Origin: Turneriella sp.
GTDB taxonomy: Bacteria > Spirochaetota > Leptospiria > Turneriellales > Turneriellaceae
Assembly: GCA_965279515.1 (NCBI GenBank)
Contig: CBDIID010000003.1
Coordinates: forward strand, 1,920,001 to 1,984,000
DNA: 64,000 nt
Direction: 5' to 3'
The notes below the pieces were generated by a model, which saw only the letters and a program-made list of their open reading frames with translations, was not told the origin of the DNA and did no database searches. Below, in pieces: positions 45,238 to 64,000 of the stretch. The position numbers and the translations under genes were made by a program. Each line of letters opens with the position of its first letter. Position 1 is the first letter of the stretch.

Positions 45238-45336
45238 GGGGTTAACTGGGTTTCAGAGACCCTGCCTCAAGAAGAATTCGAAGAGTCATCGGTCACCCAG
45301 CGCCTGAAAGATGCAATAATCGGCCATTACGGCGCT

Positions 45337-46041: not shown

Positions 46042-46165
46042 GTGCTGAGTTTTATCCGGGCCCTCTTACTGAAAGCAAAAACATGCTTCAGAGGCGGTGC
46101 GGACTACGCAAGGGGCTGCCAGCAGGTTGTTTAAAACGGTTCGTTTCGTTCACACCCGGGGATAG

Positions 46166-47224: not shown

Positions 47225-47234
47225 GAAAAAACTC

Positions 47235-48488: not shown

Positions 48489-49459
48489 TCGACGCGGAAA
48501 AAAGACTGGGTCGAACTCTGTGTCACCTGACCACCGCTTACCGCCGCATACGATGTTCCGTTTGTCGCATCCCGTGCTGCATTTGTTGTACCTGTATAAC
48601 TATAGGCGAGTCCAAGGCGAGGCATGACAAAACGGCATTCCGGATCGCCGGTTCCCGACATACATCCGGCAGGTGCTCCCTGGTCCGCAGTGTTCAGGTT
48701 CAGATCGCGCACGACTTCTTTAAGGTCGGCGATAATGCGCAGCGAAGAAAGTGACGACAAACCGTTTTGGTAGGCTTCGGGAATATTCAGAGTCACCTCG
48801 GGGCGATTCGGTGTGGTACAGGTTACCTGATCCTGCGTTGCCCCTGTTTGTGTGCAGCTTAAGCTACCAATATGAACATTGAAAGCCGAAGCGTCATATC
48901 CGCCACCGCCTGAGGTCAGAAAGTCGAGCCGGGCTGCTTTGCGTCCACTCGTCCACGACCAGTAAAGAGCCGCAACATTGAGAGGGGCTGGAGCATTGTT
49001 CACGTCAAGATGATTCAAGCTGGATGGAATCCCGAGCGTGAATTTAATCTTCGAGTACTTATCGCCTGCCGTCACCGCAACAGTCCCCTTAACCTGGGAA
49101 TTTGTTGCGCTCGTAGGGCCGGTAGTCGCTGCGCAACCGCCCGTACCATTCTCAAAATCGAGGAGTGTAACGTTTTGGTACTGCCAGGTATTGTCTGCTG
49201 TCAAAGAAACGGTGACCTCACTGCCGTCCGATTTCACCAGTTTTACGTCATGAATATAGAAACGAAAATCGCGCGCAGCAAGCTGGGTCGACCCGGTACC
49301 AACACCGGAATAAGTCGTACCGCAGGCAAAATCTGCCGAACCGACTTTGGCTTGAAAATTCAGGACTAAATCCGTGGTATTCGCATCGATCTGGGTTTTT
49401 ACGCATCCCGCGGTAAAAAACATACCGCAAAGCATGGTTATGATTATTTTGTTTTTCAT
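48485..49459 (-). CDS. MbnP-family copper-binding lipoprotein, paralog 1
   Basis: Lipobox, DFRFYIHDV, WQYQNVTLLDFE, F.LGIP..LNH, WSW, HIGS..C and CMS...DPEC. Confidence 0.85.
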   Translation of the reverse strand: MKNKIIITMLCGMFFTAGCVKTQIDANTTDLVLNFQAKVGSADFACGTTYSGVGTGSTQLAARDFRFYIHDVKLVKSDGSEVTVSLTADNTWQYQNVTLLDFENGTGGCAATTGPTSATNSQVKGTVAVTAGDKYSKIKFTLGIPSSLNHLDVNNAPAPLNVAALYWSWTSGRKAARLDFLTSGGGGYDASAFNVHIGSLSCTQTGATQDQVTCTTPNRPEVTLNIPEAYQNGLSSLSSLRIIADLKEVVRDLNLNTADQGAPAGCMSGTGDPECRFVMPRLGLAYSYTGTTNAARDATNGTSYAAVSGGQVTQSSTQSFFRVE

Positions 49460-49483
49460 TTTTTTCTCCTTGTAAATTTTGGG

Positions 49484-50131
49484 TTAAAAAGTCATGGCAA
49501 CGCTCAGAAGGGGTTGCACGCTTAAGGCACTCGCCGAATAATCCGTACTTGCCCCGCCGCCGCTGGCCGCCTGGCTGACGGTCCAAAAAAAATACGAGAA
49601 ATTCACCGCGCCACCGACAAAGATATGGGTGGCGATTTCATAATCGTATCCCACCCGCAAAGCGGCGAGCGGACTGACTGCTGTGTACGTGGTCGCCGTT
49701 GCCCCCGAAATCTTGAGCAGGTTTATGCTCGCGCCGAGACCGAGACCCACGTAGAGATTTTTTACTGGAAAATACCGCGCATACGCTGCGACAGGCACCT
49801 GGGTAAGCTGGGTCGTATTCGTCGCAGAACCGATCGTAGCATTATTCTTGTAGGTAACCTGGTATCCGCCGGATATCCCCAATTGAGAGCTACTGTTACC
49901 GTACCACAGGGTTACGCCAAACGCCGGCGAAAGCACGGCACCGTTATCGGAGCCATAGACCGTCTCAACCGCAGAAGCGTATGAGCTTTTTGTGGCGTAA
50001 TTGATACCGCCATAAACCTGACCGATAAGATTCGCAGAGCGCCAAAACTCGTGGGGTGCTGGCTTGGTTTCTGCGGACAGCGTTCCAAAACCGGCAAATA
50101 TTGAACATAGAAAAATAATTCGTAATTTCAT
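49484..50131 (-). CDS. Small outer-membrane beta-barrel protein
   Basis: GAGG RBS, signal peptide, ~8 amphipathic beta-strands, C-terminal Phe. Confidence 0.7.
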   Translation of the reverse strand: MKLRIIFLCSIFAGFGTLSAETKPAPHEFWRSANLIGQVYGGINYATKSSYASAVETVYGSDNGAVLSPAFGVTLWYGNSSSQLGISGGYQVTYKNNATIGSATNTTQLTQVPVAAYARYFPVKNLYVGLGLGASINLLKISGATATTYTAVSPLAALRVGYDYEIATHIFVGGAVNFSYFFWTVSQAASGGGASTDYSASALSVQPLLSVAMTF

Positions 50132-50249
50132 AAATTCCTCGTAATTAAAAATTTTTGATGATCGCGCACACCGGAAGTGAGCAAACAAAACGCCTGACCA
50201 CGCGACTCAATGGCGCGGGCTTTAAAGCGGAAATTGCTACTTGTGTGCG

Positions 50250-50639
50250 CTAAGCCCGGGGGGGCGGAGTTTCAATGTCGGCAAGGTATGAAATGTAAAG
50301 AGGAGAGCTGATTTGAATGGCGGAAACATGGTATTGCACCGCGGTTAATCCCACCTGATTGCCCGTGAATACCCAGCGCGCGAACGCTGGCAGCACAGAA
50401 TCGTCGGCTTCGTCGGCGCAGGGATGGTCGGCTTTCAGAATTTTCGCCTTTGCCATGGCCTTGTTCAGCCTGTTGCATCCGCAGGGGCAATCTTTGCCCT
50501 TTTGCACTTTCTGCTTTGTATGAACGCAGAGAAAATATTTCGGTTGCTGCGCCGTAGCAACTTCAAAAGCACCAGCGAGCTGAGCAATAAACAGCGTGAG
50601 GCCAAAGCCGTGCAAGATTTTACACCGGAACACGCGCAT
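50250..50639 (-). CDS. Cys-rich PPPR-ending leader protein A (candidate stalling uORF)
   Basis: Signal/TM, CVH...CPCGC...HPC, ends DIETPPPRA; paralog of the ORFs at 56745, 60174 and 61970. Start uncertain. Confidence 0.8.
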   Translation of the reverse strand: MRVFRCKILHGFGLTLFIAQLAGAFEVATAQQPKYFLCVHTKQKVQKGKDCPCGCNRLNKAMAKAKILKADHPCADEADDSVLPAFARWVFTGNQVGLTAVQYHVSAIQISSPLYISYLADIETPPPRA

Positions 50640-50701
50640 GCGTCCAGAATTGATGGCGAGACGCTCCGTCAAGAGATATAAAGATCTTTTATTTCACTTG
50701 T

Positions 50702-51793
50702 TTACCCTGCCTCGTTGTGGTTGTGGTGAGAGTAAAGGCTGAAATTCCATGAAACGCCGAAATTCAGCCTGCCCTCGACTTTCTGCTGCGGCTCGTTCAA
50801 CATCTGCAAAACCGGAAATTCTTTGGAGATAAAACAGCCGAGTTCGAGCGGCAGATTCAAACGCATACCCACAGTCCAGAACGTGATAAGACCCCCACTG
50901 TTAACAATTATCGCGTCATGGTCGCGGGACTTCATCATATAACGCGCGGTTAACTCGGTGAAGGTAAAGAGTTTCGTGCGATCGAGATCAAATGCCCTGA
51001 ACGAAAGCGCGACGCCGCCGTCGATGCGGTCTCCGATTTTATAGGTCTTGTAATAGCCGCGGTAGATATAACTGCCGCTCGCGGTCAGTGTGAAGACATT
51101 CGCAAATTGTTTACTGGCTGCAAGACCCGCCATAAAATCTACGCTCCCACTGCCGGGTGTCGCCGACGGATCGAGAGAAAACTGATCTGTTCCCCCGGCG
51201 CCCGAGACCACATGATAGCTCGGCTGCGGAATGTTGCCGCCCGCAACCTGCGCAGCGGGTAGAGAATTCAAGGCCACCGACTCGCTGGCGCCCGCGAGGT
51301 TGCCGGTGGGTAACTTGACCCCGCCCAACCCCGCGAGGGTCCAGCCTGCGCCGGAGAAAAATTTCACCTTGCCATTCAGCCAGAGGTCGGTGAGACCCGC
51401 GACATTTCCCGCGTCGATGAGCTTGTAGGCAGTATTCGAATCAAGCACGCCCTCGCGTAAGCGGTGCCCGTAATACCACCCGATCGTCGCCGATGCGTCG
51501 AGCCATGAGAGAATGCCATAACCCAAAGTCACGTTCGAGATCGACCCCAGGCCCAGCGTGTCGATATGCGATCCCGCCGTCTTCATCTTCTGTGTCGCGT
51601 CTGAGATCGCCACGTCAGGGTATTCTGCGTACGAAGTAAAACTCTGCATAATGGAGAGCGAGAAATGATGGCGCTCAATCGTATCGGGCATGATCACGCT
51701 GCCGGTGGCCCCCGTCGTTCCGGGCCCATGGTCGGCGTGTACGAAACTTTGCAGCAGGGATAGAAACAAAAAAACGGAGAGAATATTTTTCAT
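50702..51793 (-). CDS. Outer-membrane beta-barrel transporter, paralog 2, with His-rich tail
   Basis: Signal peptide then DHGP; GLTD...KLPTG...PGSGSVD; ends SHHNHNEAG. Confidence 0.75.
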   Translation of the reverse strand: MKNILSVFLFLSLLQSFVHADHGPGTTGATGSVIMPDTIERHHFSLSIMQSFTSYAEYPDVAISDATQKMKTAGSHIDTLGLGSISNVTLGYGILSWLDASATIGWYYGHRLREGVLDSNTAYKLIDAGNVAGLTDLWLNGKVKFFSGAGWTLAGLGGVKLPTGNLAGASESVALNSLPAAQVAGGNIPQPSYHVVSGAGGTDQFSLDPSATPGSGSVDFMAGLAASKQFANVFTLTASGSYIYRGYYKTYKIGDRIDGGVALSFRAFDLDRTKLFTFTELTARYMMKSRDHDAIIVNSGGLITFWTVGMRLNLPLELGCFISKEFPVLQMLNEPQQKVEGRLNFGVSWNFSLYSHHNHNEAG

Positions 51794-51815
51794 ATAATTT
51801 CCTTGAAATAAAACA

Positions 51816-52988
51816 TTATGGATTGTTCGATGACCCCTTCGGCCAGGGGTTCGAGAATTTGGGATTCGTCACAAATTCCGTATCGGTGAGGCTACGCAGA
51901 AATTCTATCAGGTCGCTTTTGTCGCCAGCAGTAAAACTGCCACTAAAGTTCTTTACCAGCGGATTCTTGCGCGTGTTGAGAGCCCCGTCGCCATCGAAAC
52001 CGGCGCCTTTACCGGTTACATTGCGGCCGCCGCGCTTATAATGCTCGATCACATTATCGAGAGTATCGATCGAACCGTCGTGCATATACGGCGCCGTGAG
52101 TTCGATATTTCTGAGCGTCGGTGCCTTAAAGCTGCCGTTATCAGCGACATTGCCCGTCACGAGGTTGAGGCCGCTGTTGCCGCTCGGGAAGACATTGGCG
52201 TTGCCAACGTTATAGATCCCATTGTTCAGAAACTGGATGTCGGCCGCTACCTTGCTGTAATAGTCTTCGGCGCTCGAAAAGGTAATACCCGCATGGCAGT
52301 GAAAACAATCCGCGGTTTCACCAAAAAAGAGGTTCATACCACGCTTTGCCGCTGCGCTCATCGCCGTCTTATCGGTGCCCGTGATATACTTGTCGTATGG
52401 AGATTTGCCGCTGATCAGCGTACGCTGAAAGGCCTCGAGCGCATCGCGTATGTGAGCGACAGAAATCGTCGGGGCATCCTTGGCAAAGGCGGCATTAAAG
52501 AGACCAACGTATTTGTCATCGGCCGCAAGCCGCGTCACGACTGTAGCTTCCATACCCGCAAGCCCCAGCTCGACCGGCGTCGTACCAAAGAGCGGCACAT
52601 TTGCCTGTACATTGAGCCGTGTCTGCAATGAATTCGCCCAGGTCAGCACCGGCTGGTACGCGAGGTTAATCAGCGACATCGAGTTGCGCGGATGCGCCTC
52701 ACCTGTCGAGCCGATGCCCACGGTGAGGCCGTCTGAGAACGCCTTGTTCTGGTGGTGGCAGCCTGCACAGGCCTGCGTCTGGTTACCTGACAGGCGTTTG
52801 TCGTAGAAAAGATGGCGACCCAGATCGACCTTCTCGTTGGTCATCGGGTTATTTTCAAATTCGCGTGGCCGTGGGAAACCGGGGGGGAGATCCCACTTAA
52901 ATGCGCTGGGCTCCTGGATGTATTTGAAATCCAGGTTCTGGCAGCCGACGGCCACGAGGGCCAGAGCGAAACTCAATACCGTACGCAT
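51816..52988 (-). CDS. MbnH-type di-heme enzyme, paralog 2
   Basis: Lipobox, CAGCH, CFHCH and FKAPTLRNIELTAPYMHDG. Confidence 0.88.
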   Translation of the reverse strand: MRTVLSFALALVAVGCQNLDFKYIQEPSAFKWDLPPGFPRPREFENNPMTNEKVDLGRHLFYDKRLSGNQTQACAGCHHQNKAFSDGLTVGIGSTGEAHPRNSMSLINLAYQPVLTWANSLQTRLNVQANVPLFGTTPVELGLAGMEATVVTRLAADDKYVGLFNAAFAKDAPTISVAHIRDALEAFQRTLISGKSPYDKYITGTDKTAMSAAAKRGMNLFFGETADCFHCHAGITFSSAEDYYSKVAADIQFLNNGIYNVGNANVFPSGNSGLNLVTGNVADNGSFKAPTLRNIELTAPYMHDGSIDTLDNVIEHYKRGGRNVTGKGAGFDGDGALNTRKNPLVKNFSGSFTAGDKSDLIEFLRSLTDTEFVTNPKFSNPWPKGSSNNP

Positions 52989-53972
52989 CTATTCTACCCT
53001 GAAGAAGACCTGGCCCGAGGTAGGGTAAACAGTGGGAGATCCCGCACTGCTCGCAGTTAAGCCGCGCGCGGTGGATGACCCCGTATAAGAGAAGTCGACA
53101 CCCCAGTTGTTGAGTACGGCCTTACACTCGGGATCGCTGCGGTCAGAGTGACAGCCCGGCTGCGTGCCCCCGGTATTCGCGATCGAGAAATCCGTGTCTT
53201 TATAGAGCTCTTTCGCGTCGGCGACCACTGTCTGCCCGTAAGTGAAGTTCAATTCTATTGCCGGCCGGTTCGATGTGTCGCAGACAATGTCGGGCGGCGA
53301 CGCGAAGGTATCACAATCGATACTGCCCAAATGCGTGAAAAACGGATTGTACGTGTTTACGTTGAACTCCACGACCGCATGTTTGTAGCCGGTCGTCCAG
53401 CTCCAGAACATATACGTCACGTTGAGCGGCGCATTGGTGTTGCCGACGCCATTCTGATTGAGGTTCTGCGGTACGCCGAGCTTGAAGCGTAGCTTCGTAA
53501 ACGTGAGCGCCTCGCTCGCGGCGATGGTGCCACGCACCGTGGTATTCGTACCGGCATTACCCTGTGCAGCGCACTGCGTACTAGCGGCGGCATTCTCAAA
53601 ATCGAGCAGCGCGAGGTTCTGGTACTGGTAGGCGGCATCTTGAGTGAGGGTGACGGCGACTTCGCTGCCATTGGCCCTCACGAAACGCACGTCGTGCACA
53701 AAGAAGCGGAAATCTTTGGGCACGAGCGTCGCTCCGCCGCCAGCGCCGACACCGGAATAACTGGCCGTCGAACAATCGAAGACCTGCGTCCCGACCTTGG
53801 CAGCAAACTGTATCGTCACATTTTGCTGGGGTACGGAGCTGCCCGAACCCGAGCCCGCCGAAGACCCCGCTTCGGCTTTCTTTTTTTCTTCATCAATCGC
53901 CTGCAATATTTTATTGTCTGCGCATGCACTCAGCGAAAGAAAAAGTGCGGCGAAAAATAGATATATTTTCAT
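52989..53972 (-). CDS. MbnP-family copper-binding lipoprotein, paralog 2
   Basis: LSAC lipobox, DFRFFVHDV, LALLDFE, MFWSWTTGYKH, HLGS..C and CHS...DPEC. Confidence 0.85.
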   Translation of the reverse strand: MKIYLFFAALFLSLSACADNKILQAIDEEKKKAEAGSSAGSGSGSSVPQQNVTIQFAAKVGTQVFDCSTASYSGVGAGGGATLVPKDFRFFVHDVRFVRANGSEVAVTLTQDAAYQYQNLALLDFENAAASTQCAAQGNAGTNTTVRGTIAASEALTFTKLRFKLGVPQNLNQNGVGNTNAPLNVTYMFWSWTTGYKHAVVEFNVNTYNPFFTHLGSIDCDTFASPPDIVCDTSNRPAIELNFTYGQTVVADAKELYKDTDFSIANTGGTQPGCHSDRSDPECKAVLNNWGVDFSYTGSSTARGLTASSAGSPTVYPTSGQVFFRVE

Positions 53973-53980
53973 ATCATCTC

Positions 53981-55030
53981 CTAATCCAATCGGAATTCTT
54001 TTCTTTTCAGAAAATTTTCGTCGGTAAGGGTCAGTAAAAACTCTTTGAGGTCGGCTTTATCCTGCGTCGAAAAATGAAATCCGCCTGCCGGTAGTTTGGC
54101 ATCGAGTGTCGCAGACCGCTGAATACCCGATGAATAATGTTCGATCACGGCCTCAAGCGTCGCAAAACGCCCGTCGTGCATGTAGGGCTTTGTCACGGCA
54201 ATGTTGCGCAATGTGGGAGTGCGGAATTTGCCGATGTCTTCGTTCTTGCGGGTGATACGAAACCGGCCCATGAGCTGACCTTCGTGGTCGGGGGGATATT
54301 TGGTATCGAGACCGTTGTTGTGATAACCATTATCGGTCAACAGCGGGCCGTTATGACACACGGCGCATTTGCCGGTATACAGATTGCGCCCCCGTGCTTG
54401 TGCGTCGTTGAGCATGCCCTCTTGTCTCAGCACACGATCATAGAGCGAATCGAAAGAAACGAGGGTTCGCACGAATTGCGCCAGCGCCTGCAGCATGTTT
54501 GTGATAGACACCTGCTGGTCGGGAAACGCCTTTTCAAATGCGCGGCGGTAAGCACCGTCAGCCCTGAGCTTATCGAGCGAAACGCCGATCGGTTGTCCCA
54601 TTTCATCTGCGTTATGCAATGGTCCAATCAGCTGCGACTCAATATTTTTAGCACCGCCATCCCAGAATAAGCCGTTGTTCGACCAGGCGAGGTTAATGAG
54701 AGCCGGAGAGTTGCGCGTCGCCGGTTTGCCCGACACGCCGCTCTTCGCCAATGCGACGCCATCGCTGAACGCCAGCGATTGATCGTGACAGGTCGCGCAG
54801 CTGACTTTGTCATTGGCAGAAAGCCTTGGCTCATAAAACAGCCTGCGCCCGAGCGCGATAATTTCCTTTCGGAATCTATTGGTATCAGGCTCGGGCAACG
54901 GCCCCAGAAAGCGCAGTGTTTTGGGATGTGCATATTCGTGCACGGCAAGCACCGGATTTTCAGACCGGCAAGCGATCACGAACAGCGCACCCCAAAGCGC
55001 GGCAAGCCGCGCTTTGTTGGTCACGCGCAT
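53981..55030 (-). CDS. Di-heme cytochrome c peroxidase-like protein (MbnH-like), third and divergent copy
   Basis: LGRRLFYE.RLS, CATCH, FWDG, CAVCH and FRTPTLRN...PYMHDGR. Confidence 0.88.
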   Translation of the reverse strand: MRVTNKARLAALWGALFVIACRSENPVLAVHEYAHPKTLRFLGPLPEPDTNRFRKEIIALGRRLFYEPRLSANDKVSCATCHDQSLAFSDGVALAKSGVSGKPATRNSPALINLAWSNNGLFWDGGAKNIESQLIGPLHNADEMGQPIGVSLDKLRADGAYRRAFEKAFPDQQVSITNMLQALAQFVRTLVSFDSLYDRVLRQEGMLNDAQARGRNLYTGKCAVCHNGPLLTDNGYHNNGLDTKYPPDHEGQLMGRFRITRKNEDIGKFRTPTLRNIAVTKPYMHDGRFATLEAVIEHYSSGIQRSATLDAKLPAGGFHFSTQDKADLKEFLLTLTDENFLKRKEFRLD

Positions 55031-55032
55031 GA

Positions 55033-56634
55033 TTACGGTACGCTGGCCGAGGTTACCGAGAACACGTTGTTCTGGTAAGCGTTAGCCAAATTACCCATGA
55101 GCGCCGAATTGGTCGATGCATTGATGTACTTAGGCGACCCGGAAACTGTCGAGGTATTCACACCCGCACCACCATTAACCTGGAACAGTTTCGCCACGTT
55201 TGCCCGAACGTTAATCACCGCATTCTTGCCTTTGGTTAGCGTTATGCTCGCAGGAAAAGTTAAGGCTGTCAGGCTGCGATAATTTGCGTTTGCGCCGATA
55301 TCGAAGCCAAAATTGACAGAACCGCAACTCACGCACTGCCCGGTAATTTGTGAAAACAGGTAACTACTATTCCACATCCAGGTATACGTTGCCATATCAC
55401 GGTGAATATGCAGCTCTCCTGCTTGCAGGCTTAGGTTGTTGTTATAGGTCGAGTCTACACCAACCGAAAACTGGATGGCTGTGTAAGTCCCTGATGGCAC
55501 ATCGGCAATCGAAATTTGCTCACGGTTGGCCGCCGCAATCGTCATACCGCTATTGATGTTGCCTGGGCTAATCGCACTGTTTGTTGTCATCAGATAGTAA
55601 CTACCCGGCACGGAGTATTGCGTTGTGTCCGCTTTGGTAAGTTTAACGTTGCTTATCCAATAGCGAAAACGCGTAAAACGCAACGTGTTACTGTGATCAT
55701 CGGTATACGTCGTATTCAGCGCAAAGGTGGTGCCGTTAAAATCCTTGGCGACGTTAATTGTCGCAGTGCCGACATCGGCTTCAGAAACCGCCGTGGTAGT
55801 GGCGCTTACAAGGCTTACCGCAGAAGCAAAGTTTGCGGCTACGGTACTCATCTGGCCGGCATTATTGAAGCCGTTGATAGCACGCTTTGTAACACCCGTA
55901 TCGACGCTAACTGTGCCAATATCGATACCCGCGAACAATTTTTCTACGTCAATCTTTGCGACAATCGTTGGGGCAGAGGTCGCACTGACAGTGATATTCG
56001 TGGGAAAGCTCAGTGTTTTAGTCTGATAATTTGCATTCGTACCAAATTCGAGCGCAAAAGCCTGCTGCCCTGAGCAGCTTGTGCAGGTTCCCGAAGTTTT
56101 GCCAAAAATGTAGCTGGTAACCCACGACCACTCGATGTTGCCCATATGAGAAAAGAGGTGAAGTTCCCCTGTTCTCAAGCTCAGATCGTTATTATACGTT
56201 GAATCGACGCCTACGCTGAATTTAATCCCTTTATAGCTTCCGACAGGGACTTTTTTCAGGGTCACATTTTCCCTATTTCCCGCCGCCAGATTAAAGTTAG
56301 GCACGCGTTCGCCAGTCGTATCGCCCGTGACAGCATTATTCTGCGAAAGCAGGTAATACGCGTCCGGCACCGCAACTTCGGAATTGTCGTCCTTGATGAA
56401 TTTAACGTTCGATACCCAATAACGAACCTCGTTGATGGTGATTGTGTTTCCCGCTGCTGTCGTATACGATGTGCCGAGAGCAAAAGCCGCCCCATTGAAA
56501 TACTTCGGCATTTGCAGCGAAACCTCGCCCGTTTCGCTGGCAGATGCAGCGGTGGTACCAGATTCCTCTGAATTTTTTGCGCAGGCACCCAATAGCGCGC
56601 TGCAAAGTAAGATAAGATAAAATTTCGATTTCAT
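55033..56634 (-). CDS. Lipoprotein with two tandem MbnP-like domains
   Basis: GGAGG RBS, LGAC lipobox; internal duplication with RYW(V/I)SNVK, YYL, FSVGVDSTYN, WxW and CxxC in each half. Confidence 0.8.
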   Translation of the reverse strand: MKSKFYLILLCSALLGACAKNSEESGTTAASASETGEVSLQMPKYFNGAAFALGTSYTTAAGNTITINEVRYWVSNVKFIKDDNSEVAVPDAYYLLSQNNAVTGDTTGERVPNFNLAAGNRENVTLKKVPVGSYKGIKFSVGVDSTYNNDLSLRTGELHLFSHMGNIEWSWVTSYIFGKTSGTCTSCSGQQAFALEFGTNANYQTKTLSFPTNITVSATSAPTIVAKIDVEKLFAGIDIGTVSVDTGVTKRAINGFNNAGQMSTVAANFASAVSLVSATTTAVSEADVGTATINVAKDFNGTTFALNTTYTDDHSNTLRFTRFRYWISNVKLTKADTTQYSVPGSYYLMTTNSAISPGNINSGMTIAAANREQISIADVPSGTYTAIQFSVGVDSTYNNNLSLQAGELHIHRDMATYTWMWNSSYLFSQITGQCVSCGSVNFGFDIGANANYRSLTALTFPASITLTKGKNAVINVRANVAKLFQVNGGAGVNTSTVSGSPKYINASTNSALMGNLANAYQNNVFSVTSASVP

Positions 56635-56744
56635 ATTTCCTCCAAATTCCAAAATCTGCCGTAAACTTACGGCGCGCACACGGCTCGCCTTAGCTGACCG
56701 CGCGCAAATAGCCTGAGATTTTGCTCAGGGTATGTTATGTGAAT

Positions 56745-57137
56745 TTAGAGCGCCCGGGGGGGCGGAGTTTCAATGTCGGCGAGATAGGATTTATAGAGAG
56801 GAGAACTGATTTGAATTAGCGAAATACGATACTGCACCGCGGTTAATGCCACTTCATTGCCCGTGAACACCCAGCGCGCGAAAGCTGGCAGCACAGAATC
56901 TTCGGCCTCATCGGCGCAAATACGGTCAGATTTCAGAATTTTCGCTTTTGCCATTGCTTTTTTTAACTTACTGCAACCGCAGGGGCAAGCTTTGTGCTTT
57001 TCAATTTTTTGTTTGGTATGAACGCAGAGATAATATTTGGGTTGCTGCGCGTGGATTACCTCAAAGGCACCGCTGATTTGCGCGAAAAACAACACCAAAC
57101 CGAAGCCGTGAAGAACTTTGTAGCGCTTTAGCCCCAC
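56745..57137 (-). CDS. Cys-rich PPPR-ending leader protein B (candidate stalling uORF)
   Basis: Closely similar to leader A in protein and DNA; ends DIETPPPRAL. GTG start at 57137 inferred by alignment. Confidence 0.8.
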   Translation of the reverse strand: MGLKRYKVLHGFGLVLFFAQISGAFEVIHAQQPKYYLCVHTKQKIEKHKACPCGCSKLKKAMAKAKILKSDRICADEAEDSVLPAFARWVFTGNEVALTAVQYRISLIQISSPLYKSYLADIETPPPRAL

Positions 57138-57197
57138 AGCTGAAACCCCGCCCAAACAAGTGCCCGGTCAACCATTTTTCAAGATGAGTCGCGAGTC

Positions 57198-57234
57198 AAA
57201 AAATCCGGACACATTGTTTGCACAATGTGTCCGG
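57198..57234 (-). terminator. Rho-independent terminator after the cytochrome pair
   Basis: Perfect 13-bp stem CCGGACACATTGT-TTGC-ACAATGTGTCCGG followed on the minus strand by ATTTTTT. Confidence 0.8.
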
Positions 57235-57258
57235 TAGTGTTAGCAGTTGAAACGAGAT

Positions 57259-58605
57259 TTATTTCACAGAGAGAATGTAAGCCGCAAGCGCCTCGAAATC
57301 CTTCGCCTGCAACTGGTCTTCGAAACCCGGCATCTGTGGATAGCCTGGCCTTTTTTTGCCCGGCTTGCGTATCCACTGCATGAGTTGGGCTTCTTTACCC
57401 TTGTAAATCGAGACCATTTCGACCACGGGTGGGCCCACGAGCTTGGTCTTGATCTGGTGGCAGCCGACGCAATAGTTGTCGAAAAGCTTTTGCCCCTCGC
57501 CCACGAGAGGATTCTCTTTCGCCGGCCCGGCCTCGGGTTTCTTCTGCGCCGCGACTGCCGCATTAGCCTCGGCCACAAGCTTCTCGTATTCAGCCGTGCG
57601 TTCGGCGACGAGTTTCTTGTGTGGCCCCAAAGCGGTCTCGCGAATCACATGACGCCCCGACACCATGAGGATAACCACGATAGTCAGCGCAATCACGATC
57701 TTCGAAAAACGGCTGCCGATGGCCTCGGCAGGGCCAGAAACCGACTTCCACATCCAGACGAGCGTGAGAATGCCGACGACGACGGCAGGCGCCAGAATGG
57801 CGAGCAACGCCCAACTGATTGCCTTAGAAGGCAAGGTCAAGAGCACCAGCGGTCCCGCGACAAACTGCAGCAGCGTCGCCATGAAGGCGAGCGAGAGCAT
57901 GCGCTTGCGAATCTCATAGCGCGACAGATTGACAAACTTCTCTGCGTGCGGATATCCCTCGCGGCCAAAATACCAGAACAGAAAAAGTCCGGTCACTGTC
58001 AGCGAGGCTAACACGAAGTGAAAATAACGCGGGAAAACATTCGGCAATGCAAGCGCCGAGAAGAATCCCGAGACACTGCCCCATTTTTCCGGGTAGAGCA
58101 TCAGGTTGATGTTCGTCAGAAAAATCAACGGTATCGTCAGAAAGATCGCCGATGCAGCGCCGATCATCGCGATATGCAGCCCCTTGTTATCCTTGAGGAT
58201 ATCCCACAGATACTTGTGCGGGTACGTGAGTAAAAAACCCACCGTCACGAGCGGCACAATCGCAATCCAAAAGAGTCCCGTCAGCGCATTCGCCGAATAA
58301 AAATACACCGTGTAGAGCGTATTGATGAGCAACAGCGGAGCTACCCCCATCACGACGGCGAGACTCTTGTTGACGGTGATCGTCTTGGCAATCTCATGCG
58401 CAAGCTGGTCATAGTCTTTCTCTTTAAGACCCTTGAGCTGTGCGAAAAATGTCAACAGTGTTCCGCCCAGCATCAGGTTCACGAAAAGAATATGCACCAG
58501 AAACGAGAAGACCAACAGACCGACTGCGAGCCACTCGGGTAGCGGCAAGGGTAGCGGAATGTCTTTTGGCACCGGCACCGCGGCGAGAAATAGCGCGAAA
58601 TTCAT
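57259..58605 (-). CDS. Multi-TM membrane protein with C-terminal c-type cytochrome (cytochrome bd-related partner subunit)
   Basis: About 9 TMs, HILFVN and RYFHF; C-terminal CVGCH...MP heme c domain; coupled to the upstream gene. Confidence 0.75.
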   Translation of the reverse strand: MNFALFLAAVPVPKDIPLPLPLPEWLAVGLLVFSFLVHILFVNLMLGGTLLTFFAQLKGLKEKDYDQLAHEIAKTITVNKSLAVVMGVAPLLLINTLYTVYFYSANALTGLFWIAIVPLVTVGFLLTYPHKYLWDILKDNKGLHIAMIGAASAIFLTIPLIFLTNINLMLYPEKWGSVSGFFSALALPNVFPRYFHFVLASLTVTGLFLFWYFGREGYPHAEKFVNLSRYEIRKRMLSLAFMATLLQFVAGPLVLLTLPSKAISWALLAILAPAVVVGILTLVWMWKSVSGPAEAIGSRFSKIVIALTIVVILMVSGRHVIRETALGPHKKLVAERTAEYEKLVAEANAAVAAQKKPEAGPAKENPLVGEGQKLFDNYCVGCHQIKTKLVGPPVVEMVSIYKGKEAQLMQWIRKPGKKRPGYPQMPGFEDQLQAKDFEALAAYILSVK

Positions 58606-60002
58606 TTGCGCACCTCTGCCTCTGGCAGCCGCACACCGACTTCCTGTGCACCCTCGGCATTATCGGGATATTTTGCTGCGGCGAGAATGTAACTCGCGAG
58701 CGCACCCAACTCGGCCTCATTGCCAGGAAAAGGCGGCATGAAGTAGCGCGACTTATGCATGTTGCGCATATAGCCGACCATGGCATCTGCATTGAAATTA
58801 TCTTTACCCAAAAGGTTCTCAAACTTTTTCACCACAGAGTTGATGCCGCCCGAAGTGTGGCAGCGGCTGCATGCAAGCATAAAGATGTCTTTGCCCGATT
58901 CTACAGCATTTGCAGATGTAACCTCGCGGTACTTCACATAGGTCGCATGCTTCAAGATGCCGTCACGGTTTAAGAGCGCCATCTCTTTCGGCCGCACCAT
59001 GTTCGAATACATGTAATCGGCGATCACATAGGGTTTGCGAATGAATTCACGCGTACGCTCGAAGGTGACCATCAGCGTAATCGCCAGCCCTATCGGTAAC
59101 ACAAGAGCCAAGGCCGGTATACGCCAGCGGCCAATGATGCCCAGCACAGCGACAAAACCGATGACGCCTGCGGCGACTGCCATGATAACGAGCAGATTGT
59201 CATACCATGACGAGAACTCCATCGTGCCGATCGCGACCGACATGTTCTGCCGCATCATATCGGGTATGACCCAATAATAATAGATCGAACCGATGATGAG
59301 AAATGGCGTCCACGCGAGTACCCACGAACCCGTAAGACGTACGGCAGATCGTCTGAGCGCGTCATTATTCCGCACAAAAAACGGAATCAGGGCAAAAACG
59401 ACAGATCCGCCCATGACCATCGCGAGCGGAGTACGAAACGCCAGCTGCGCAGGGTAAACGGGATTCAGAAACCCCTTAATCAGCGACTGGTCGGTACGCC
59501 AGCTGCCCGGGTCCATCATGAAACTCAATATCGCGACAATGATCGCCATGGTGACCCAAGAGGCGATCGAAAGCGCGATGCCGAAGCGAATGTGTTTCCA
59601 TTTTTTCTCTGGTGAAGCATTTGATCTGCGCCAGCTGAGAAAATAAATCAGAATGAGGATGACTTCGGTGACGAAGACAATCCACTCCACGAACCAGGCG
59701 GCGAAAAAGACCCGTATCAGGCTGCCAATCGATGCAGGGCTGACAAGGCTCGCCGAGAGCCAGATGCCGACGCCGGTCATGGCGCCGAGCGATGTGGTGA
59801 TGATGAATGCGAAGAACATGACCTTGCGGGCCAGTTCATCCCATTCTTTGCTGTTATTCTTGTACCCGACGTATTCGAGATACGTCACATACGGTATGAG
59901 GCCCACCGCCAAAGCGTGGTTAATCACCACGTGCAGAATCGCAATGATCGCGATTAAAATGCGGTTGCCCATAAAATCCAAATGAAATATGGGAAAGTCC
60001 AT
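58602..60002 (-). CDS. Cytochrome bd subunit I-like membrane protein fused to cytochrome c
   Basis: ILHVVINH, GAMTGVGIW, WFVEW.VFVTE, ILSFMMDPGSW and RE.IRKPY resemble CydA TM motifs; C-terminal CSRCH...MPPF; no evident Q-loop. Confidence 0.72.
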   Translation of the reverse strand: MDFPIFHLDFMGNRILIAIIAILHVVINHALAVGLIPYVTYLEYVGYKNNSKEWDELARKVMFFAFIITTSLGAMTGVGIWLSASLVSPASIGSLIRVFFAAWFVEWIVFVTEVILILIYFLSWRRSNASPEKKWKHIRFGIALSIASWVTMAIIVAILSFMMDPGSWRTDQSLIKGFLNPVYPAQLAFRTPLAMVMGGSVVFALIPFFVRNNDALRRSAVRLTGSWVLAWTPFLIIGSIYYYWVIPDMMRQNMSVAIGTMEFSSWYDNLLVIMAVAAGVIGFVAVLGIIGRWRIPALALVLPIGLAITLMVTFERTREFIRKPYVIADYMYSNMVRPKEMALLNRDGILKHATYVKYREVTSANAVESGKDIFMLACSRCHTSGGINSVVKKFENLLGKDNFNADAMVGYMRNMHKSRYFMPPFPGNEAELGALASYILAAAKYPDNAEGAQEVGVRLPEAEVRK

Positions 60003-60173
60003 AGTTTGAACTCCTTATAGTTAATAATGTATAGGTTAAGCCGCGCGCAATAATCGGTGTTTATATGCTGCGCCATCAGGTACAGCGACGTCACCGGCGC
60101 GAATCACGGCAGTGAGAGGGCATACCTGTGGCTGCGTGCGATTCAGGCTGATTCAATGCGCGGCAGGCGGCGC

Positions 60174-60575
60174 TTAGGCCGCAGCAGATCGGGGTGGAGG
60201 CGGAGTTACTTCAGCGATAATACTATGATAAAATGGATCAATACTGGGGACAACCACAGTGAAATAACGGGGAGTCGGCACCGAAAACGGTAAGTATATG
60301 CCGCCGAAGCGATCAAAATTCGGCATGTGAGCAATATCGTCATCGGGGCTGGCACAGACATCGTCGGCGTCGACGAGCACCGCGATTTTTTTGGGTGACT
60401 TATGCTTGTGCCCGCACGGACAGGGATTTCCCTTCTGTACGCGCACCTTCATGTGGGGACACATATAATATGTTTTCACCTGTAGATTCGAAACGAGGTC
60501 GGGCACAGCCGACAATTGCAATGTAAAAAGAAAAAGACCACAAAGATGAATCGGCGTGAGAAAGCGGATCAGCAA
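60174..60575 (-). CDS. Cys/His-rich PPPR-ending leader protein C (candidate stalling uORF)
   Basis: Signal/TM, CPH...CPCGHKH...DVC, ends EVTPPPPRSAAA. Start uncertain (TTG at 60575 or 60641). Confidence 0.75.
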   Translation of the reverse strand: MLIRFLTPIHLCGLFLFTLQLSAVPDLVSNLQVKTYYMCPHMKVRVQKGNPCPCGHKHKSPKKIAVLVDADDVCASPDDDIAHMPNFDRFGGIYLPFSVPTPRYFTVVVPSIDPFYHSIIAEVTPPPPRSAAA

Positions 60576-60661
60576 GTTATGACCAAAGACTTTTTTCGTA
60601 CAACCGGTAAAGAAATTTCGCGAAGACTTTACGACGTTCAAAGCAAGAAGACTCTGACAAC

Positions 60662-61237
60662 ATGAAAATTGCCCTGCTACTTGTTTTCTCTACTCTGCCG
60701 CTCACCGCTCAAACAAACGCGGGGTTAAAACTCGGCGGCACGCTCATGAACGGCAAAGAGGGTACACGCGCGATCGTCGAGTTGGGTGACGGCAGAACCA
60801 CGCAGGTCTGCGAAGCGGGCAAAGCTTGCTCGAAAAATGCCTGCGACTGCGAGGTCGCCGGTTATAAAGTCGTGCATATCGAAGCGCGCAAGGTAACGCT
60901 GCGGCGCGGCGGCGAACGTTTCACGCTGACCCTCGATGGCCTGCGCCCCGAAGGACAAACAGGTAAATATGCGGGCACAATTACCCGGGACTTTTCCCGC
61001 GCAAAACTTCAGGAAACCCTGAATACTCGCGGCGAGAAGGCCACGGACGTGTTACACAAACTGCTCGCTGGCGCCGATGTCAGGCCGACAGACACCATCA
61101 AAACCGTGCAAGGACATCCCCTTGAAAGAGTAAAGTGGGGTACGGTGCACGGGAGCATTCAGGCCGCCGAACAGGTGGCCATTGAAATCGAGCGCGAAGG
61201 CAAGCTGATACTCTTACAGCTGCGCATGACGCAATAA
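60662..61237 (+). CDS. Exported hypothetical protein with Cys cluster; weak GspC/PDZ-like features
   Basis: Signal peptide; LGGTL...AIVE...GYKVVHIE..KVTL resembles the GspC HR domain; CEAGKACSKNACDC; C-terminal IEIEREGK. Confidence 0.6.
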   Translation: MKIALLLVFSTLPLTAQTNAGLKLGGTLMNGKEGTRAIVELGDGRTTQVCEAGKACSKNACDCEVAGYKVVHIEARKVTLRRGGERFTLTLDGLRPEGQTGKYAGTITRDFSRAKLQETLNTRGEKATDVLHKLLAGADVRPTDTIKTVQGHPLERVKWGTVHGSIQAAEQVAIEIEREGKLILLQLRMTQ

Positions 61238-61248
61238 AAGCCAAGAAC

Positions 61249-61875
61249 TCAGCCGGGACAGACCGGGCTCAGCTTAGCGGTAATTTTCACATCGATATCG
61301 GGCCACAGCTTGCTTTGGCCGTCTTTACCCTTATGCAGGTCTTTGCAGGCCAGGTTCAAGGCCGCGAGCGGTGAAAGGGCGTTGAATTCAGCGATATCAA
61401 GCCTAAAGGCGACTTCGAGCCCTGCACCGTCGACGCGGCGCACCGTAGCCGAGACCTTTTTCTCGATGCCGTTGATTTTCAGGAGCAGGGTGGCGTTGTT
61501 TGCGCTCACCGATTCGACGCGTGCCCTGATCTCCCCCTTATTTTTCATCGCTGCGAAAAACGCGTAATAAATCTTCTTATCGCGGTCGGGATTATTCGTA
61601 TTCACGCTCGCGGCATCGACGATGAATTCGGCTTCTGCAAAGACCTCTTCGGGTTTCGTGGCGGTGCGCGCATTTTCAGTTCGAATCGAATTAAAAGTTC
61701 CCGAAACACCGAGGCGCTCTGTAAACTTGTATGCAGTCCATTGCAGCTTTGCCTGCGTGGGGTCGAAATCAAAGCGGCAGAGGCTGTAATCCGGTTTTAT
61801 TTCTGCTTTCTTGCAAGACCAGAAGAGTGCCAAGATAAGTACAATGCCAACAATGTGACTCTTTCGCAAAATCAT
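61249..61875 (-). CDS. YceI-family lipoprotein
   Basis: WSC lipobox; WTAYK...VSGTF and SVNTNNPDRD motifs. Confidence 0.8.
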   Translation of the reverse strand: MILRKSHIVGIVLILALFWSCKKAEIKPDYSLCRFDFDPTQAKLQWTAYKFTERLGVSGTFNSIRTENARTATKPEEVFAEAEFIVDAASVNTNNPDRDKKIYYAFFAAMKNKGEIRARVESVSANNATLLLKINGIEKKVSATVRRVDGAGLEVAFRLDIAEFNALSPLAALNLACKDLHKGKDGQSKLWPDIDVKITAKLSPVCPG

Positions 61876-61969
61876 AGTTGGGAAAAGCCTCTGCGATACC
61901 GCGCGTAAAGCCGGTTTTCACAACAGCGGTTTACGCTGTATCCATAAGATAGATTTGCTGCGGAGCGCC

Positions 61970-62326
61970 GTGCTGAGAAAGATTACCGCCACGCTGATTT
62001 GCCTCTTGCTTCTTGCAACTGCCACCGAGGCGGTCGGACTTATCTCACACTCGACCGGCGTACTCAAATGCCCCAGCTGCAAAATGAAAATGCAGAAAAT
62101 CGACGACTGCCGCTGCCATAAGAAAAAACCTGTTTCCGCGGCGAAAATCCACGACCCCTGCGGCGACAACGAGGGGGATTTCCACATTTCCTTCGACCGG
62201 GTGCAGGGTGTTGCGGCGCCCGAAGTCTTTGTGCCGGCCGCTTTTGTCAGTACATACCTCTCTCTCTCTTATCGCTACCCCACCGGTATCACGAGCGATA
62301 TTCCGCAGCCGCCGCCGCGGCGTTAA
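61970..62326 (+). CDS. Cys-rich PPPR-ending leader protein D (candidate stalling uORF)
   Basis: GGAG + GTG start, signal peptide, CPSC...CRCH...HDPC, ends DIPQPPPRR; directly upstream of the TonB-dependent receptor. Confidence 0.8.
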   Translation: MLRKITATLICLLLLATATEAVGLISHSTGVLKCPSCKMKMQKIDDCRCHKKKPVSAAKIHDPCGDNEGDFHISFDRVQGVAAPEVFVPAAFVSTYLSLSYRYPTGITSDIPQPPPRR

Positions 62327-62400
62327 CTCCTGCCCAACAAACAAATAACCACTGAAAGTGGTGCATCCGCGCTAAGGCGCGAGATAAAGGAGTTATGTTT

Positions 62401-64000
62401 ATGCGATTATTTACGATCAAAGCCGTTGCCGTTCTTCTCATCACGAGCAGCGCAATCTGGGTACAGACACCCGAAAAGAAAGATGAAAAAACTAAAAAAA
62501 ATCCCGTGGAAATTCCCGCTAACGCAGCGGATCCTGAAGGTGTAAAAACCATCGCGGTTGAAAAAGGCGAGACTAAACCTCTCGAAGAAGAAGAAACCCT
62601 GCCCGACGTCGTCGTCACGGCCACGCGCGAAGAAGAAAAACGCCGCGATGTGCCGATGTCGATCGGCAAGATCAAACGCGACTCGATTAAAGATACGAAG
62701 CCGATCCATCCATCCGAGCTGATGAACCAGTCGCCGGGTGTGTTTGTGAACACGACAAGCGGTGAGGGACACCAGACAATGATCCGCCACCCGATCACGA
62801 CCGGCTCGGTGTATCTTTACCTCGAAGACGGTGTGCCGACGCGCTCACCAGGATTTTTCAACCATAACGCGCTCTTCGAAATTAACGTGCCACAAGCCGG
62901 CGGTATTGAAATCATCAAAGGCCCTGGTTCAGCGCTCTATGGCAGCGATGCACTCGGTGGGGTTGTCAACGTGCTGACGCGCCCTGTGACAAAAGACCGC
63001 GAAATCGACCTGAGCTTCGAATACGGCGGTTTCGGCTGGAAAAGGCTTTTGGCCTCGGCCGGCGAAAAGTTTGGCGACCATGCCATACGCGTCGATGGAA
63101 ACATGACCGATTCGAAGGGCTGGCGTGACGGTACGAAATACTCGCGCCAAAGCGGTACGCTGCGTTGGGATGCAGTCTTCGGCAAACATAAGTTCAAGAC
63201 CGTCGTCACGGCTTCGAATATCGACCAGCAATCGGCAGGCGCCGCGGCATTGCGCGAGGCGGATTATCTGAATAATTCGCAGGCGAACTACATGCAATTC
63301 TCCTACCGCCGCGTCAAAGCCGTACGTGTTTCAACTCAGTACGATTACGAAATCAGCCAGGGCAACAAGCTATCGGCCATTCTCTACGGACGCTACAACG
63401 AGATGGGGCAATTACCGAATTATATCGGCGCACAGACAACCCAGCGGGAAAACAACTTGCGCAATGCCTCGGCGGGATTGCTTTTCAAGCACCTGCTCGA
63501 TATTCAGCTTTTTCACTCAAAGCTGATTTCGGGTATCGACGCCGATTATTCGCCGGGAGTCTTTAACGAATGGAATGTAACGACTACAAAATCCGGCGAT
63601 TATTTTACGAGTTACACAACCGGCGCATTGCAATACGACTATGATGTTAAATTTTATCAGGCATCGCCGTTTGTCCAGCTCGAATCATCGCCGCTTACGC
63701 GAAAACTAAAACTGCAACTCGGTGCACGGTATGACTACATGGGTTATATCTATAAGAATAACCTGAGCGTCATTCAAACCGGTAATACACGCCGCCCCGA
63801 AGATGCATCGCCCAGCTTCAACCACCTCTCGCCTAAAGCGGGCGTCGTGTACGACTTCTTCGCCGAACTCAATGTCTTCGCGAGTTACCGCCACGGCTTT
63901 CGTGTGCCACAGCAAAGCGACCTGTTTCGCCAGGGCAGCGCCAATTCGGCCCTTGGCATCAAACCGATTAAAATCGATAGCTTTGAAATCGGTGTGAGGG
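62401..64000 (+). CDS. TonB-dependent receptor (3' end outside window; absent from the ORF track)
   Basis: My translation: AAGGAG RBS, signal peptide, TonB box LPDVVVTATR, plug (SPGV, GEGH, LEDGVP, FNHNAL, IEIIKGPGSALYGSDALGGVVN), then beta-strands towards the window edge. Confidence 0.95.
   Translation, partial: MRLFTIKAVAVLLITSSAIWVQTPEKKDEKTKKNPVEIPANAADPEGVKTIAVEKGETKPLEEEETLPDVVVTATREEEKRRDVPMSIGKIKRDSIKDTKPIHPSELMNQSPGVFVNTTSGEGHQTMIRHPITTGSVYLYLEDGVPTRSPGFFNHNALFEINVPQAGGIEIIKGPGSALYGSDALGGVVNVLTRPVTKDREIDLSFEYGGFGWKRLLASAGEKFGDHAIRVDGNMTDSKGWRDGTKYSRQSGTLRWDAVFGKHKFKTVVTASNIDQQSAGAAALREADYLNNSQANYMQFSYRRVKAVRVSTQYDYEISQGNKLSAILYGRYNEMGQLPNYIGAQTTQRENNLRNASAGLLFKHLLDIQLFHSKLISGIDADYSPGVFNEWNVTTTKSGDYFTSYTTGALQYDYDVKFYQASPFVQLESSPLTRKLKLQLGARYDYMGYIYKNNLSVIQTGNTRRPEDASPSFNHLSPKAGVVYDFFAELNVFASYRHGFRVPQQSDLFRQGSANSALGIKPIKIDSFEIGVR

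Follow-up and report, generated by a model that had tools for sequence, protein, structure and literature searches.

CutF of Rhodobacter capsulatus and CruR of Bordetella pertussis are the closest described counterparts of four small open reading frames (ORFs) in a 64,000-nt stretch of Turneriella sp. DNA (contig CBDIID010000003.1, positions 1,920,001 to 1,984,000; hereafter the window), which we refer to as leaders A to D. CutF, encoded by cutFOG, is described as a Sec-exported protein with a CxxxC motif (PMC9973294), and its C-terminus is given as P109-EPEGPPPRL-118 (bioRxiv 10.1101/2025.02.05.636593). When copper is bound it stalls at PPP despite elongation factor P (EF-P), and a stem-loop that masks cutO's Shine-Dalgarno (SD) sequence melts (PMC9973294; bioRxiv 10.1101/2025.02.05.636593). 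The protein itself is reported to be degraded rapidly or undetectable in cells. CruR (Bp2923), the prototype of DUF2946/PF11162, carries a CXXC motif separated by a conserved spacing of 45 residues from a RAPP motif and heads a TonB-transporter operon; copper relieves its arrest, upon which Rho terminates transcription in a 162-nt spacer (PMC9426467). Other DUF2946/CruR relatives are described as heading operons with TonB-dependent transporter (TBDT), MbnPH-like and AhpC_TSA genes (PMC9426467). SecM, MifM and VemP are further exported nascent chains that pause the ribosome near the C-terminus, the paused ribosome melting a stem-loop that hides the downstream SD (PMC9973294; bioRxiv 10.1101/2025.02.05.636593).

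From comparative sequence analysis, we consider it likely that the four Turneriella ORFs are cis-acting, metal-sensing, ribosome-pausing leaders of the CutF/CruR kind:

Leader A: 50250-50639 (-), 129 aa; ATG start; C-terminus ADIETPPPRA, then a TAG stop
Leader B: 56745-57137 (-), 130 aa; GTG start (TTG alternative at 57155); C-terminus ADIETPPPRAL, then TAA
Leader C: 60174-60575 (-), 133 aa; TTG start; C-terminus AEVTPPPPRSAAA (TPPPPRSAAA, then TAA)
Leader D: 61970-62326 (+), 118 aa; GTG start with GGAG 6 nt upstream; C-terminus SDIPQPPPRR, then TAA

An earlier sequence-only reading of the window had described these ORFs as Cys-rich, PPPR-ending paralogues of one layout, which is borne out by their translations and a four-way alignment. 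The leaders align over their whole length, with C38, C51, C53, C74, K42, K47, F86 and R88 (A numbering) invariant together with PPPR; pairwise identity to leader A is 77% for B, 31% for C and 28% for D. PPPR is followed by one, two, four and one codons before the stop in A, B, C and D, respectively. The distances from the last Cys to the PPPR Arg in that reading (54, 54, 55 and 53 residues in the same order) proved exact on re-measurement, and the last Pro lies 53, 53, 54 and 52 residues from the same Cys. Judged by eye, all four N-termini have a basic n-region, a hydrophobic stretch of 15-18 residues and small residues (ATA/TEA/LSA). An AlphaFold model built on a 30-sequence alignment predicts a helix at residues 3-30, a small hairpin at 35-46, a helix at 55-71 and a low-confidence region at 79-116, with pLDDT below 50 at 87-116. 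The genome (4.9 Mb, three contigs) holds exactly four copies of the leader, A to D. Three traits seen among them are rare in genome controls: CTCC right after the stop codon, PPP within the last eight residues and a fixed Cys-to-Pro spacing. PPP occurs anywhere in 160 ORFs of a crude gene set and within the last eight residues in 21 of these, many of them small ORFs.

Kept very tightly across the family is the distance from the fourth Cys to the last Pro, which is 50-54 residues in 67 of 68 members overall (P0037, a fragment without the motif region, is omitted). With the first search pattern, 56 of 57 unique members fall in this range, the exception (P0028) being a truncated fragment; a looser pattern gave 11 further members, mostly of the PG type described below, at 51-53 residues (12 rows, one a duplicate). 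The distance between the third and fourth Cys varies from 15 to 21 residues. Among nine A/B-type genes, the Cys domain has 68% identity and a ratio of non-synonymous to synonymous substitution rates (dN/dS) of 0.12, and the C-terminal 11 residues have 60% and 0.27, respectively; the 28 residues before the C-terminal motif have a mean identity of 27% and a dN/dS of about 0.6, all ratios being rough because dS is saturated. Fixed length combined with free sequence is what would be expected of a spacer, and the constraint is of the same kind as the conserved spacing in CruR.

The leaders divide into several subtypes, which have in common the putative export signal, the C-x12-C-x-C cluster, a fourth Cys flanked by acidic residues and the F-x-(R/A/K) position. 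The proline run near the stop is also kept, the residues around it changing: the diverged endings are DPPDxPS-stop, PPPDTPS-stop, PPG-stop, PPVPPG-stop and (K/R)PG-stop. PPP, DPP, PPD and PPG are among the stronger stalling tripeptides in EF-P-dependent motifs, and the diverged endings are mostly other stalling-prone proline motifs. The class of gene downstream tracks the subtype. Leaders ending ETPPPR(x1-3)-stop have MbnP directly downstream in eight of nine cases, the ninth being leader A of the window, where MbnP is the second gene. The (T/I)PPPP(R/T) leaders precede a cytochrome protein (two cases, one with a weak cytochrome signal), while the (Q/Y/S)PPPR-x-stop leaders have a TonB Plug domain downstream in three of the four loci scanned out of five, the fourth being a 91-aa fragment at the locus end. 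A TlpA/ResA-like redoxin follows all seven leaders ending DPPDxPS-stop or PPPDTPS-stop, and a conserved protein of about 277-291 aa follows all six ending PPG-stop, PPVPPG-stop or (K/R)PG-stop. The last of these proteins (loci L022 and L024-L028) starts with a signal-like segment, has an aromatic residue at its C-terminus and belongs to no Pfam or NCBIfam family; copies from two genomes are 61% identical, and it is probably an outer-membrane protein of the copper set. In all 28 cases with enough flanking sequence, the leader is the first gene of its unit and is followed by a co-oriented gene 32-283 nt downstream, as the sequence-only reading had expected of homologues in metal operons.

These patterns bear on whether the ORFs might instead encode stable periplasmic or membrane-tethered copper-binding accessory proteins, whose proline end serves for structure or docking rather than as a pause site. 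Such a protein would fit the four invariant Cys, which lie in a compact hairpin-plus-helix, as well as constant co-transcription with copper proteins (judged from gene arrangement) and a length of 118-133 aa, which is long for a regulatory peptide; the published CutF-like set also holds members without a proline motif, for example CzcI (PMC9973294). A docking tail should keep its sequence, yet PPPR is swapped for DPPDxPS or PG, and what is conserved is the position of the Pro measured from the fourth Cys, across 28 residues that evolve almost freely. The leader always comes first and is never found elsewhere in its unit, and the RNA pairing described next would have no role. We regard this explanation as unlikely.

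Leaders B and D are predicted to pair their own stop region with the SD of the next gene. The elements of the four spacers, which measure 118 nt (A), 110 nt (B), 171 nt (C) and 74 nt (D), are as follows:

Anti-SD of leader B: 56741-56750 (-), CUCUAAAUUC; last codon, stop and four more bases
SD partner in unit B: 56640-56651 (-), UGGAAUUUGGAG; holds the SD of the double-MbnP gene (ATG 56634)
Anti-SD of leader D: 62324-62331 (+), UAACUCCU; stop codon and CUCCU
SD partner in unit D: 62388-62395 (+), AGGAGUUA; SD of the TonB receptor gene (ATG 62401)
Spacer A: 50132-50249 (-), 118 nt; long hairpin with GCGCACAC at its base, immediately following the stop and pairing with GUGUGCGC some 85 nt further downstream; z -2.9
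Spacer C: 60003-60173 (-), 171 nt, structured; GC-rich hairpin directly after the stop; z -2.0

The minimum-energy fold of spacer B pairs CUCUAAAUUC with UGGAAUUUGGAG (z -4.4, none of 200 shuffles as good, SD-stop pairing P 0.92), and in spacer D UAACUCCU pairs with AGGAGUUA (z -2.9, P 0.80, best of 52 windows). The D helix is kept in all five D-type orthologues, and RNAalifold on these five spacers, which are otherwise barely alignable, returns the stop:SD helix with five of its eight pairs kept in all five. Covariation speaks neither for nor against this helix because there is no compensatory change. In a B orthologue from the same genus (L005) the helix persists, one U-A pair having become C-G and two pairs having been added. 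The spacer of this orthologue (L005:1240-1500(-)) also has an insertion of about 60 nt after the conserved GGAGG, which adds a hairpin (GGAGGCGGC...GCCGCCUCC) and another SD ahead of the MbnP start, and its switch may have two layers.

Across the family, the SD pairs with a window of 15 nt either side of the stop at P of at least 0.5 in 15 of 28 leader-gene pairs and of at least 0.75 in six, against 6.9% and 1.6%, respectively, of 1104 co-directional ORF pairs from the window's own genome with gaps of 55-290 nt. The stop window is the best of about 50-120 windows in six of the 28 pairs. CTCC directly follows the stop in 5/5 D-type and 2/6 PG-type leaders versus 6/4746 ORFs of the genome.

Spacers A and C look different, and they bring in the possibility that control is mainly transcriptional, exerted by an unrecognised regulator elsewhere or by termination in the spacer, with the leaders contributing little. 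These two leaders, with structured spacers of 118 and 171 nt, do not have the stop:SD pairing seen in B and D; in spacer C the SD lies mainly in a local hairpin with the start codon. The output of CruR is Rho-dependent termination in a spacer of 162 nt (PMC9426467). Spacer C is mildly C-rich (C/G 1.3), and two no-family ORFs in the cluster could be regulators. Set against this, domain scans of the cluster ORFs show no transcription-factor family, in agreement with the sequence-only reading, which had recognised no metal-responsive transcription factor there; no k-mer of length at least 7 is common to three or more of the four leader upstream regions (a weak test for a shared operator); and Rfam gives no match at E <= 1 in 44000-64000. 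We give mainly transcriptional control very little credence; the leader would be needed even for termination in the spacer, as it is in CruR, which makes this reading overlap with pausing leaders rather than replace them. A Rho-utilisation signature in the spacers was considered and set aside, the mild C-richness of spacer C being insufficient to claim one.

The leaders could also be stalling or coupling devices that do not sense metal, reporting instead on Sec export capacity or the periplasmic disulfide (redox) state, or serving plain translational coupling, for which a helix including the leader stop codon would be sufficient. SecM, MifM and VemP show that an exported arrest peptide can monitor export (PMC9973294), the CutF model includes a Cys-Cys disulfide that helps to release the pause (bioRxiv 10.1101/2025.02.05.636593), and the redoxins that follow one leader subtype in 7/7 cases are TlpA/ResA-like thiol-disulfide oxidoreductases. 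The downstream genes as a whole are nevertheless overwhelmingly of copper type (MbnP/MbnH, TonB receptor) and not secretion components, and four Cys with flanking Lys and His are invariant over wide divergence, beyond the needs of plain coupling. A device blind to metal is in our view distinctly improbable.

We therefore return to metal-sensing, pausing leaders and propose the following mechanism, reasoned from the anatomy above and by analogy with CutF and CruR. Each leader would be translated and exported co-translationally via Sec, and would carry one four-cysteine metal site, most likely for copper. The ribosome would pause at the terminal polyproline motif, beyond the spacer of fixed length and free sequence. 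During the pause the fourth Cys would be about 50-54 residues from the peptidyl-transferase centre, roughly the length of the tunnel plus the translocon, so the Cys site could reach the outside of the membrane and its metal or redox state could set the length of the pause. If the P site holds the second or third Pro codon, the downstream anti-SD would be some 7-21 nt away, placing it at the mRNA entry channel or within it; a paused ribosome should thus block helix formation. In units B and D the pause would keep the stop-region anti-SD unpaired and the SD free, allowing translation of MbnP or the TonB receptor; we propose the same switch for the majority of relatives of the redoxin and receptor types. 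The longer, structured spacers of units A and C may act through another RNA switch or through transcription termination. Because the targets are acquisition-type genes, copper would be expected to shorten the pause and switch these uptake-type genes off, following the logic of CruR with an output device like that of CutF. The exported Cys leader with a polyproline pause put forward in the sequence-only reading thus gains comparative support from the fixed spacing, the turnover of proline motifs, the first position in the unit and the pairing in B and D; PPPR as a distinguishing mark does not stand.

A number of observations count against this proposal. EF-P, which normally relieves PPP pauses, is present in the genome, and a PP run is entirely lacking in some PG-type members (P0047-P0049). 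For the export signal we relied on inspection by eye and on the AlphaFold helix at residues 3-30, for which a cleaved signal and a membrane anchor are indistinguishable; the AlphaFold model is poor overall (pLDDT 62, pTM 0.26), which makes the apparent disorder of the spacer weak evidence. The four Cys could bind zinc or simply form disulfides. At the RNA level, spacer A has no pairing of its SD to the stop region (P 0.00), that in C is weak (P 0.30), and across the family the value is below 0.5 in 13 of 28 pairs; just eight of 28 duplexes beat dinucleotide shuffles of the stop window by z <= -2. Some of the pairing is compositional, because Pro codons are C-rich and SDs are G-rich. The orthologues in the pairing counts are not independent of each other, and the control genes were called crudely by us.

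The units that the leaders head, and the intervening features, are as follows:

Unit A: 45337-50131 (-), five genes after leader A
215-aa protein of no family, unit A: 49484-50131 (-), weak outer-membrane-barrel hint; ATG 50131
MbnP, second gene of unit A: 48485-49459 (-)
MbnH, unit A: 47235-48488 (-)
Phenol_MetA_deg-type outer-membrane channel, 369 aa, unit A: 46166-47275 (-)
234-aa protein of no family, unit A: 45337-46041 (-)
Unit B: 50702-56634 (-), five genes after leader B
Double MbnP, unit B: 55033-56634 (-), ATG 56634
Di-haem peroxidase, unit B: 53981-55030 (-)
MbnP, unit B: 52989-53972 (-)
MbnH, unit B: 51816-52988 (-)
Outer-membrane channel paralogue, 363 aa, unit B: 50702-51793 (-)
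Unit C: 57259-60002 (-), two paralogous-looking membrane proteins of 466 and 448 aa, each with a C-terminal cytochrome c domain
Intrinsic-terminator-like hairpin: 57205-57234 (-), 13 pairs and a T run; closes unit C, just upstream of leader B
TonB-dependent receptor (Plug and barrel), unit D: 62401-64000 (+), running beyond the window end

Domain scans confirm these neighbours and with them the earlier statement that each leader lies directly upstream of, and co-oriented with, its own unit. MbnP is described as binding copper through a kynurenine ligand that MbnH produces (PMC11951088); the MbnP and MbnH genes of unit B score above the cut-offs of TIGR04039 and TIGR04052. The 369-aa channel of unit A and the 363-aa protein of unit B are paralogues (33% identity, E 1e-57), which makes the two units duplicated modules, and leader A begins 62 nt beyond the end of unit B. 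The real start of the TonB receptor of unit D is the second ATG, at 62401. For unit C, which the sequence-only reading had called a bd-like cytochrome pair, the cytochrome c domain was found; the bd likeness is a reasonable lead from look-alike clusters, Cyt_bd_oxida_I being present in 26-94% of members of the clusters nearest to the first protein. These clusters (score 0.98-0.99) mix Cyt_bd_oxida_I with cytochrome c domains, which points to an unusual fusion pair, putatively of bd subunit I and cytochrome c, under a copper-type leader. Elsewhere in the window, 41201-44503 (-) encodes a protein of 1100 aa in which B12-binding, MeaB-like GTPase and methylmalonyl-CoA mutase domains are joined; we take it to be an IcmF-type fused mutase, and it is unrelated to the leaders.

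The leaders resemble CutF in being small Cys-motif proteins with PPPR and a few residues before the stop, encoded by the first gene of a copper operon, and in the short spacer structure that hides the SD of the next gene; export is predicted here, as is the structure, in B and D. By published rules, a 'CutF-like' protein is shorter than 150 aa, has an N-terminal signal and PP among its last 15 residues, and has a neighbour on the same strand no more than 1000 nt away (PMC9973294). In size (118-133 aa), proline position (PPPR one to four codons before the stop) and neighbour (spacers of 74-171 nt), the leaders fall within them. The resulting list is described as 5,334 proteins in 29 clusters with different Cys/His motifs, Spirochaetota members being 'scarce' (PMC9973294). 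CutF differs in having CxxxC where the leaders have four Cys (C-x12-C-x-C...C), and in its target, a detoxifying oxidase rather than uptake-type genes (MbnP/MbnH, TonB receptor). Leaders B and D, unlike CutF, have their own stop codon inside the anti-SD. Since CutF itself ends in PPPRL, PPPR defines no new type: the 'distinct PPPR-type family' of the sequence-only reading is distinct from DUF2946 by sequence and not distinct by design.

With CruR the leaders share operon contexts (TonB-transporter, MbnPH-like and AhpC_TSA genes), a conserved Cys-to-arrest-motif spacing, an N-terminal export signal (putative in the leaders) and, as expected from their targets, copper switching uptake genes off. 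The spacing is 45 residues from CXXC to RAPP in CruR and 50-54 from the last Cys of CPC...C to the last Pro in the leaders, and Rho termination in a 162-nt spacer contrasts with predicted SD sequestration in spacers of 110 nt (B) and 74 nt (D). The leaders match the context of DUF2946 as first genes of putative copper-homeostasis operons (TBDT, MbnPH-like, AhpC_TSA, Sco, PCuAC). They do not show its motifs (CXXC and RAPP about 45 residues apart), having C-x12-C-P-C, a fourth Cys 15-21 residues later and PPPR. An ORF in Hahella ganghwensis (L049:1968-2369(+), NZ_AQXX01000123.1) with a marginal, full-length DUF2946 match (20.5 bits) ends SRAPPAS-stop; it lies 520 nt upstream of an MbnP-MbnH pair and is a proteobacterial counterpart in the same context. 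SecM, MifM and VemP resemble the leaders in combining exported nascent-chain arrest with an SD-hiding stem-loop, as proposed here, and differ in monitoring export through tunnel-specific arrest sequences, the leaders having metal-gene neighbours and plain polyproline.

The sequence-only reading had suggested a profile search and a comparison with DUF2946; the first found the family restricted to its own genus and one sister genus, and the second found it distinct by sequence. Pfam and NCBIfam scans of the four leaders at E <= 10 gave nothing beyond chance-level rows, and no leader matched DUF2946 (PF11162) in Pfam at that threshold. DUF2946 itself gave nothing over its cut-off (23.7 bits) in the window's own genome, and was found in none of 401 sampled Spirochaetota genomes and in none of 25 genomes holding MbnP relatives (E <= 0.001). 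Comparing a 30-member family profile with a Hahella-type DUF2946 clade ending in RAPP, hhalign gave a probability of 0.2%, a negative that rests on a thin template of four sequences, namely the Hahella ganghwensis ORF upstream of MbnP-MbnH and three relatives. In a protein-language-model search the family falls among small proteins without names from Bacteroidota and Acidobacteriota, and a DUF2946/CzcI cluster comes 14th of 30 (score 0.95). We treat the latter as a lead to likeness in kind, not as evidence of homology, although a very remote kinship with DUF2946 may exist.

A word-seeded search with a four-protein profile gave 34 proteins, the named ones being 'hypothetical protein' entries from Turneriella or Leptospiraceae, and HMMER with the 30-member profile against 1.84 billion cluster representatives gave only 20 at E <= 0.001. 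Within the taxonomic family of the window, 15 of 20 genomes hold the leader family, its own genome included: all 13 others of its genus, the single one of a second genus and none of five across four other genera. It occurs in two of 401 genomes in a sample of the phylum, both of the same genus, and in none of 75 genomes of the largest sister family. The leader family is thus tiny and confined to one spirochaete genus and one sister genus. A search of Protein Data Bank sequences with the family profile gave just two chance-level SecA peptide matches (E 0.5-1). Within the literature covered by our searches on Turneriella and copper and on DUF2946 and copper, no paper deals with the family. A Turneriella parva homologue (P0024) is present in UniRef, and homologues from this species may be among the published Spirochaetota CutF-like entries (PMC9973294). 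Two supplementary files of that study, other than its protein list (File S1), contain no occurrence of Turneriella, Spirochaet or Leptospir.

Several other ORFs have a similar look. About 46 kb from the window, a small exported ORF of 111 aa (G000:C3:2030304-2030639(-), equivalent to L075:1805-2140(-)) has the motif SCHAKPAHKNHG...KPCCNLHC and ends LPPPRRS-stop. It lies 48 nt upstream of the gene for a very Cys-rich 105-aa secreted protein with CC and CxxC repeats (L075:1439-1756(-)); the ORF belongs to no Pfam or NCBIfam family and falls outside the leader family, and the pair has the look of a further stalling-leader unit, unrelated to those of the window. Two other exported ORFs, paralogues of about 146 aa that lack a Cys cluster (G000:C3:2258006-2258446(-), L077, and C3:2264800-2265246(-), L078) end SRYPIPPPVRSI-stop and SRYPIPPPALSLA-stop. 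One directly precedes a CusA/CzcA-family resistance-nodulation-division (RND) pump (TIGR00914, 835 bits) and the other an outer-membrane efflux protein (OEP), the setting most often published for CutF-like genes. Another ORF (G000:C3:817917-818267(+), L076) encodes a 116-aa membrane protein that has an acidic stretch and ends EEIPTPPPLS-stop; it lies 42 nt upstream of a gene in which a SulP-family permease and a beta-carbonic anhydrase are fused. In a Myxococcales metagenome-assembled genome (JADKKI010000023.1), a 181-aa ORF (L056:2159-2704(+)) with a hydrophobic segment and a Cys/His cluster (HCCCGDH...ECGCPDCP) ends TPPYEPPR-stop, 296 nt upstream of an MbnP relative; it has no Pfam match and is possibly another analogue of the same design.

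We place the leader family within the known CutF/CruR class, as a member specific to its lineage rather than a new kind. Particular to it are four paralogues before four adjacent units, the radiation into subtypes, the tight Cys-to-Pro spacing and a stop codon inside the anti-SD. A fuller conjecture, which is possible and to our minds rather doubtful as a whole, is that this is an independent, spirochaete-born arrest leader and not a diverged DUF2946, with at least five subtypes that each combine one copper-gene class with one proline motif. Its four copies would stand in for a transcription factor in regulating an entire copper-acquisition locus and would join CruR logic to a CutF-type SD switch in which the anti-SD is the leader's own stop codon, the 50-54 residues measuring the tunnel plus SecYEG.

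To our knowledge, only two proteins, both proteobacterial, have been shown to sense copper post-transcriptionally as exported nascent chains. A family of the same anatomy but unrelated sequence in the Spirochaetota would mark the design as general and easy to invent anew. Within the window's own genus, the leaders would give a functional label to unannotated genes that precede MbnP/MbnH, TonB-receptor and TlpA-like genes. The family would also offer a set of natural experiments: paralogues in one locus with different outputs, proline motifs that differ but lie equally far from the sensing cysteine and, in two of the four copies in the window, a simple, mutable anti-SD helix.

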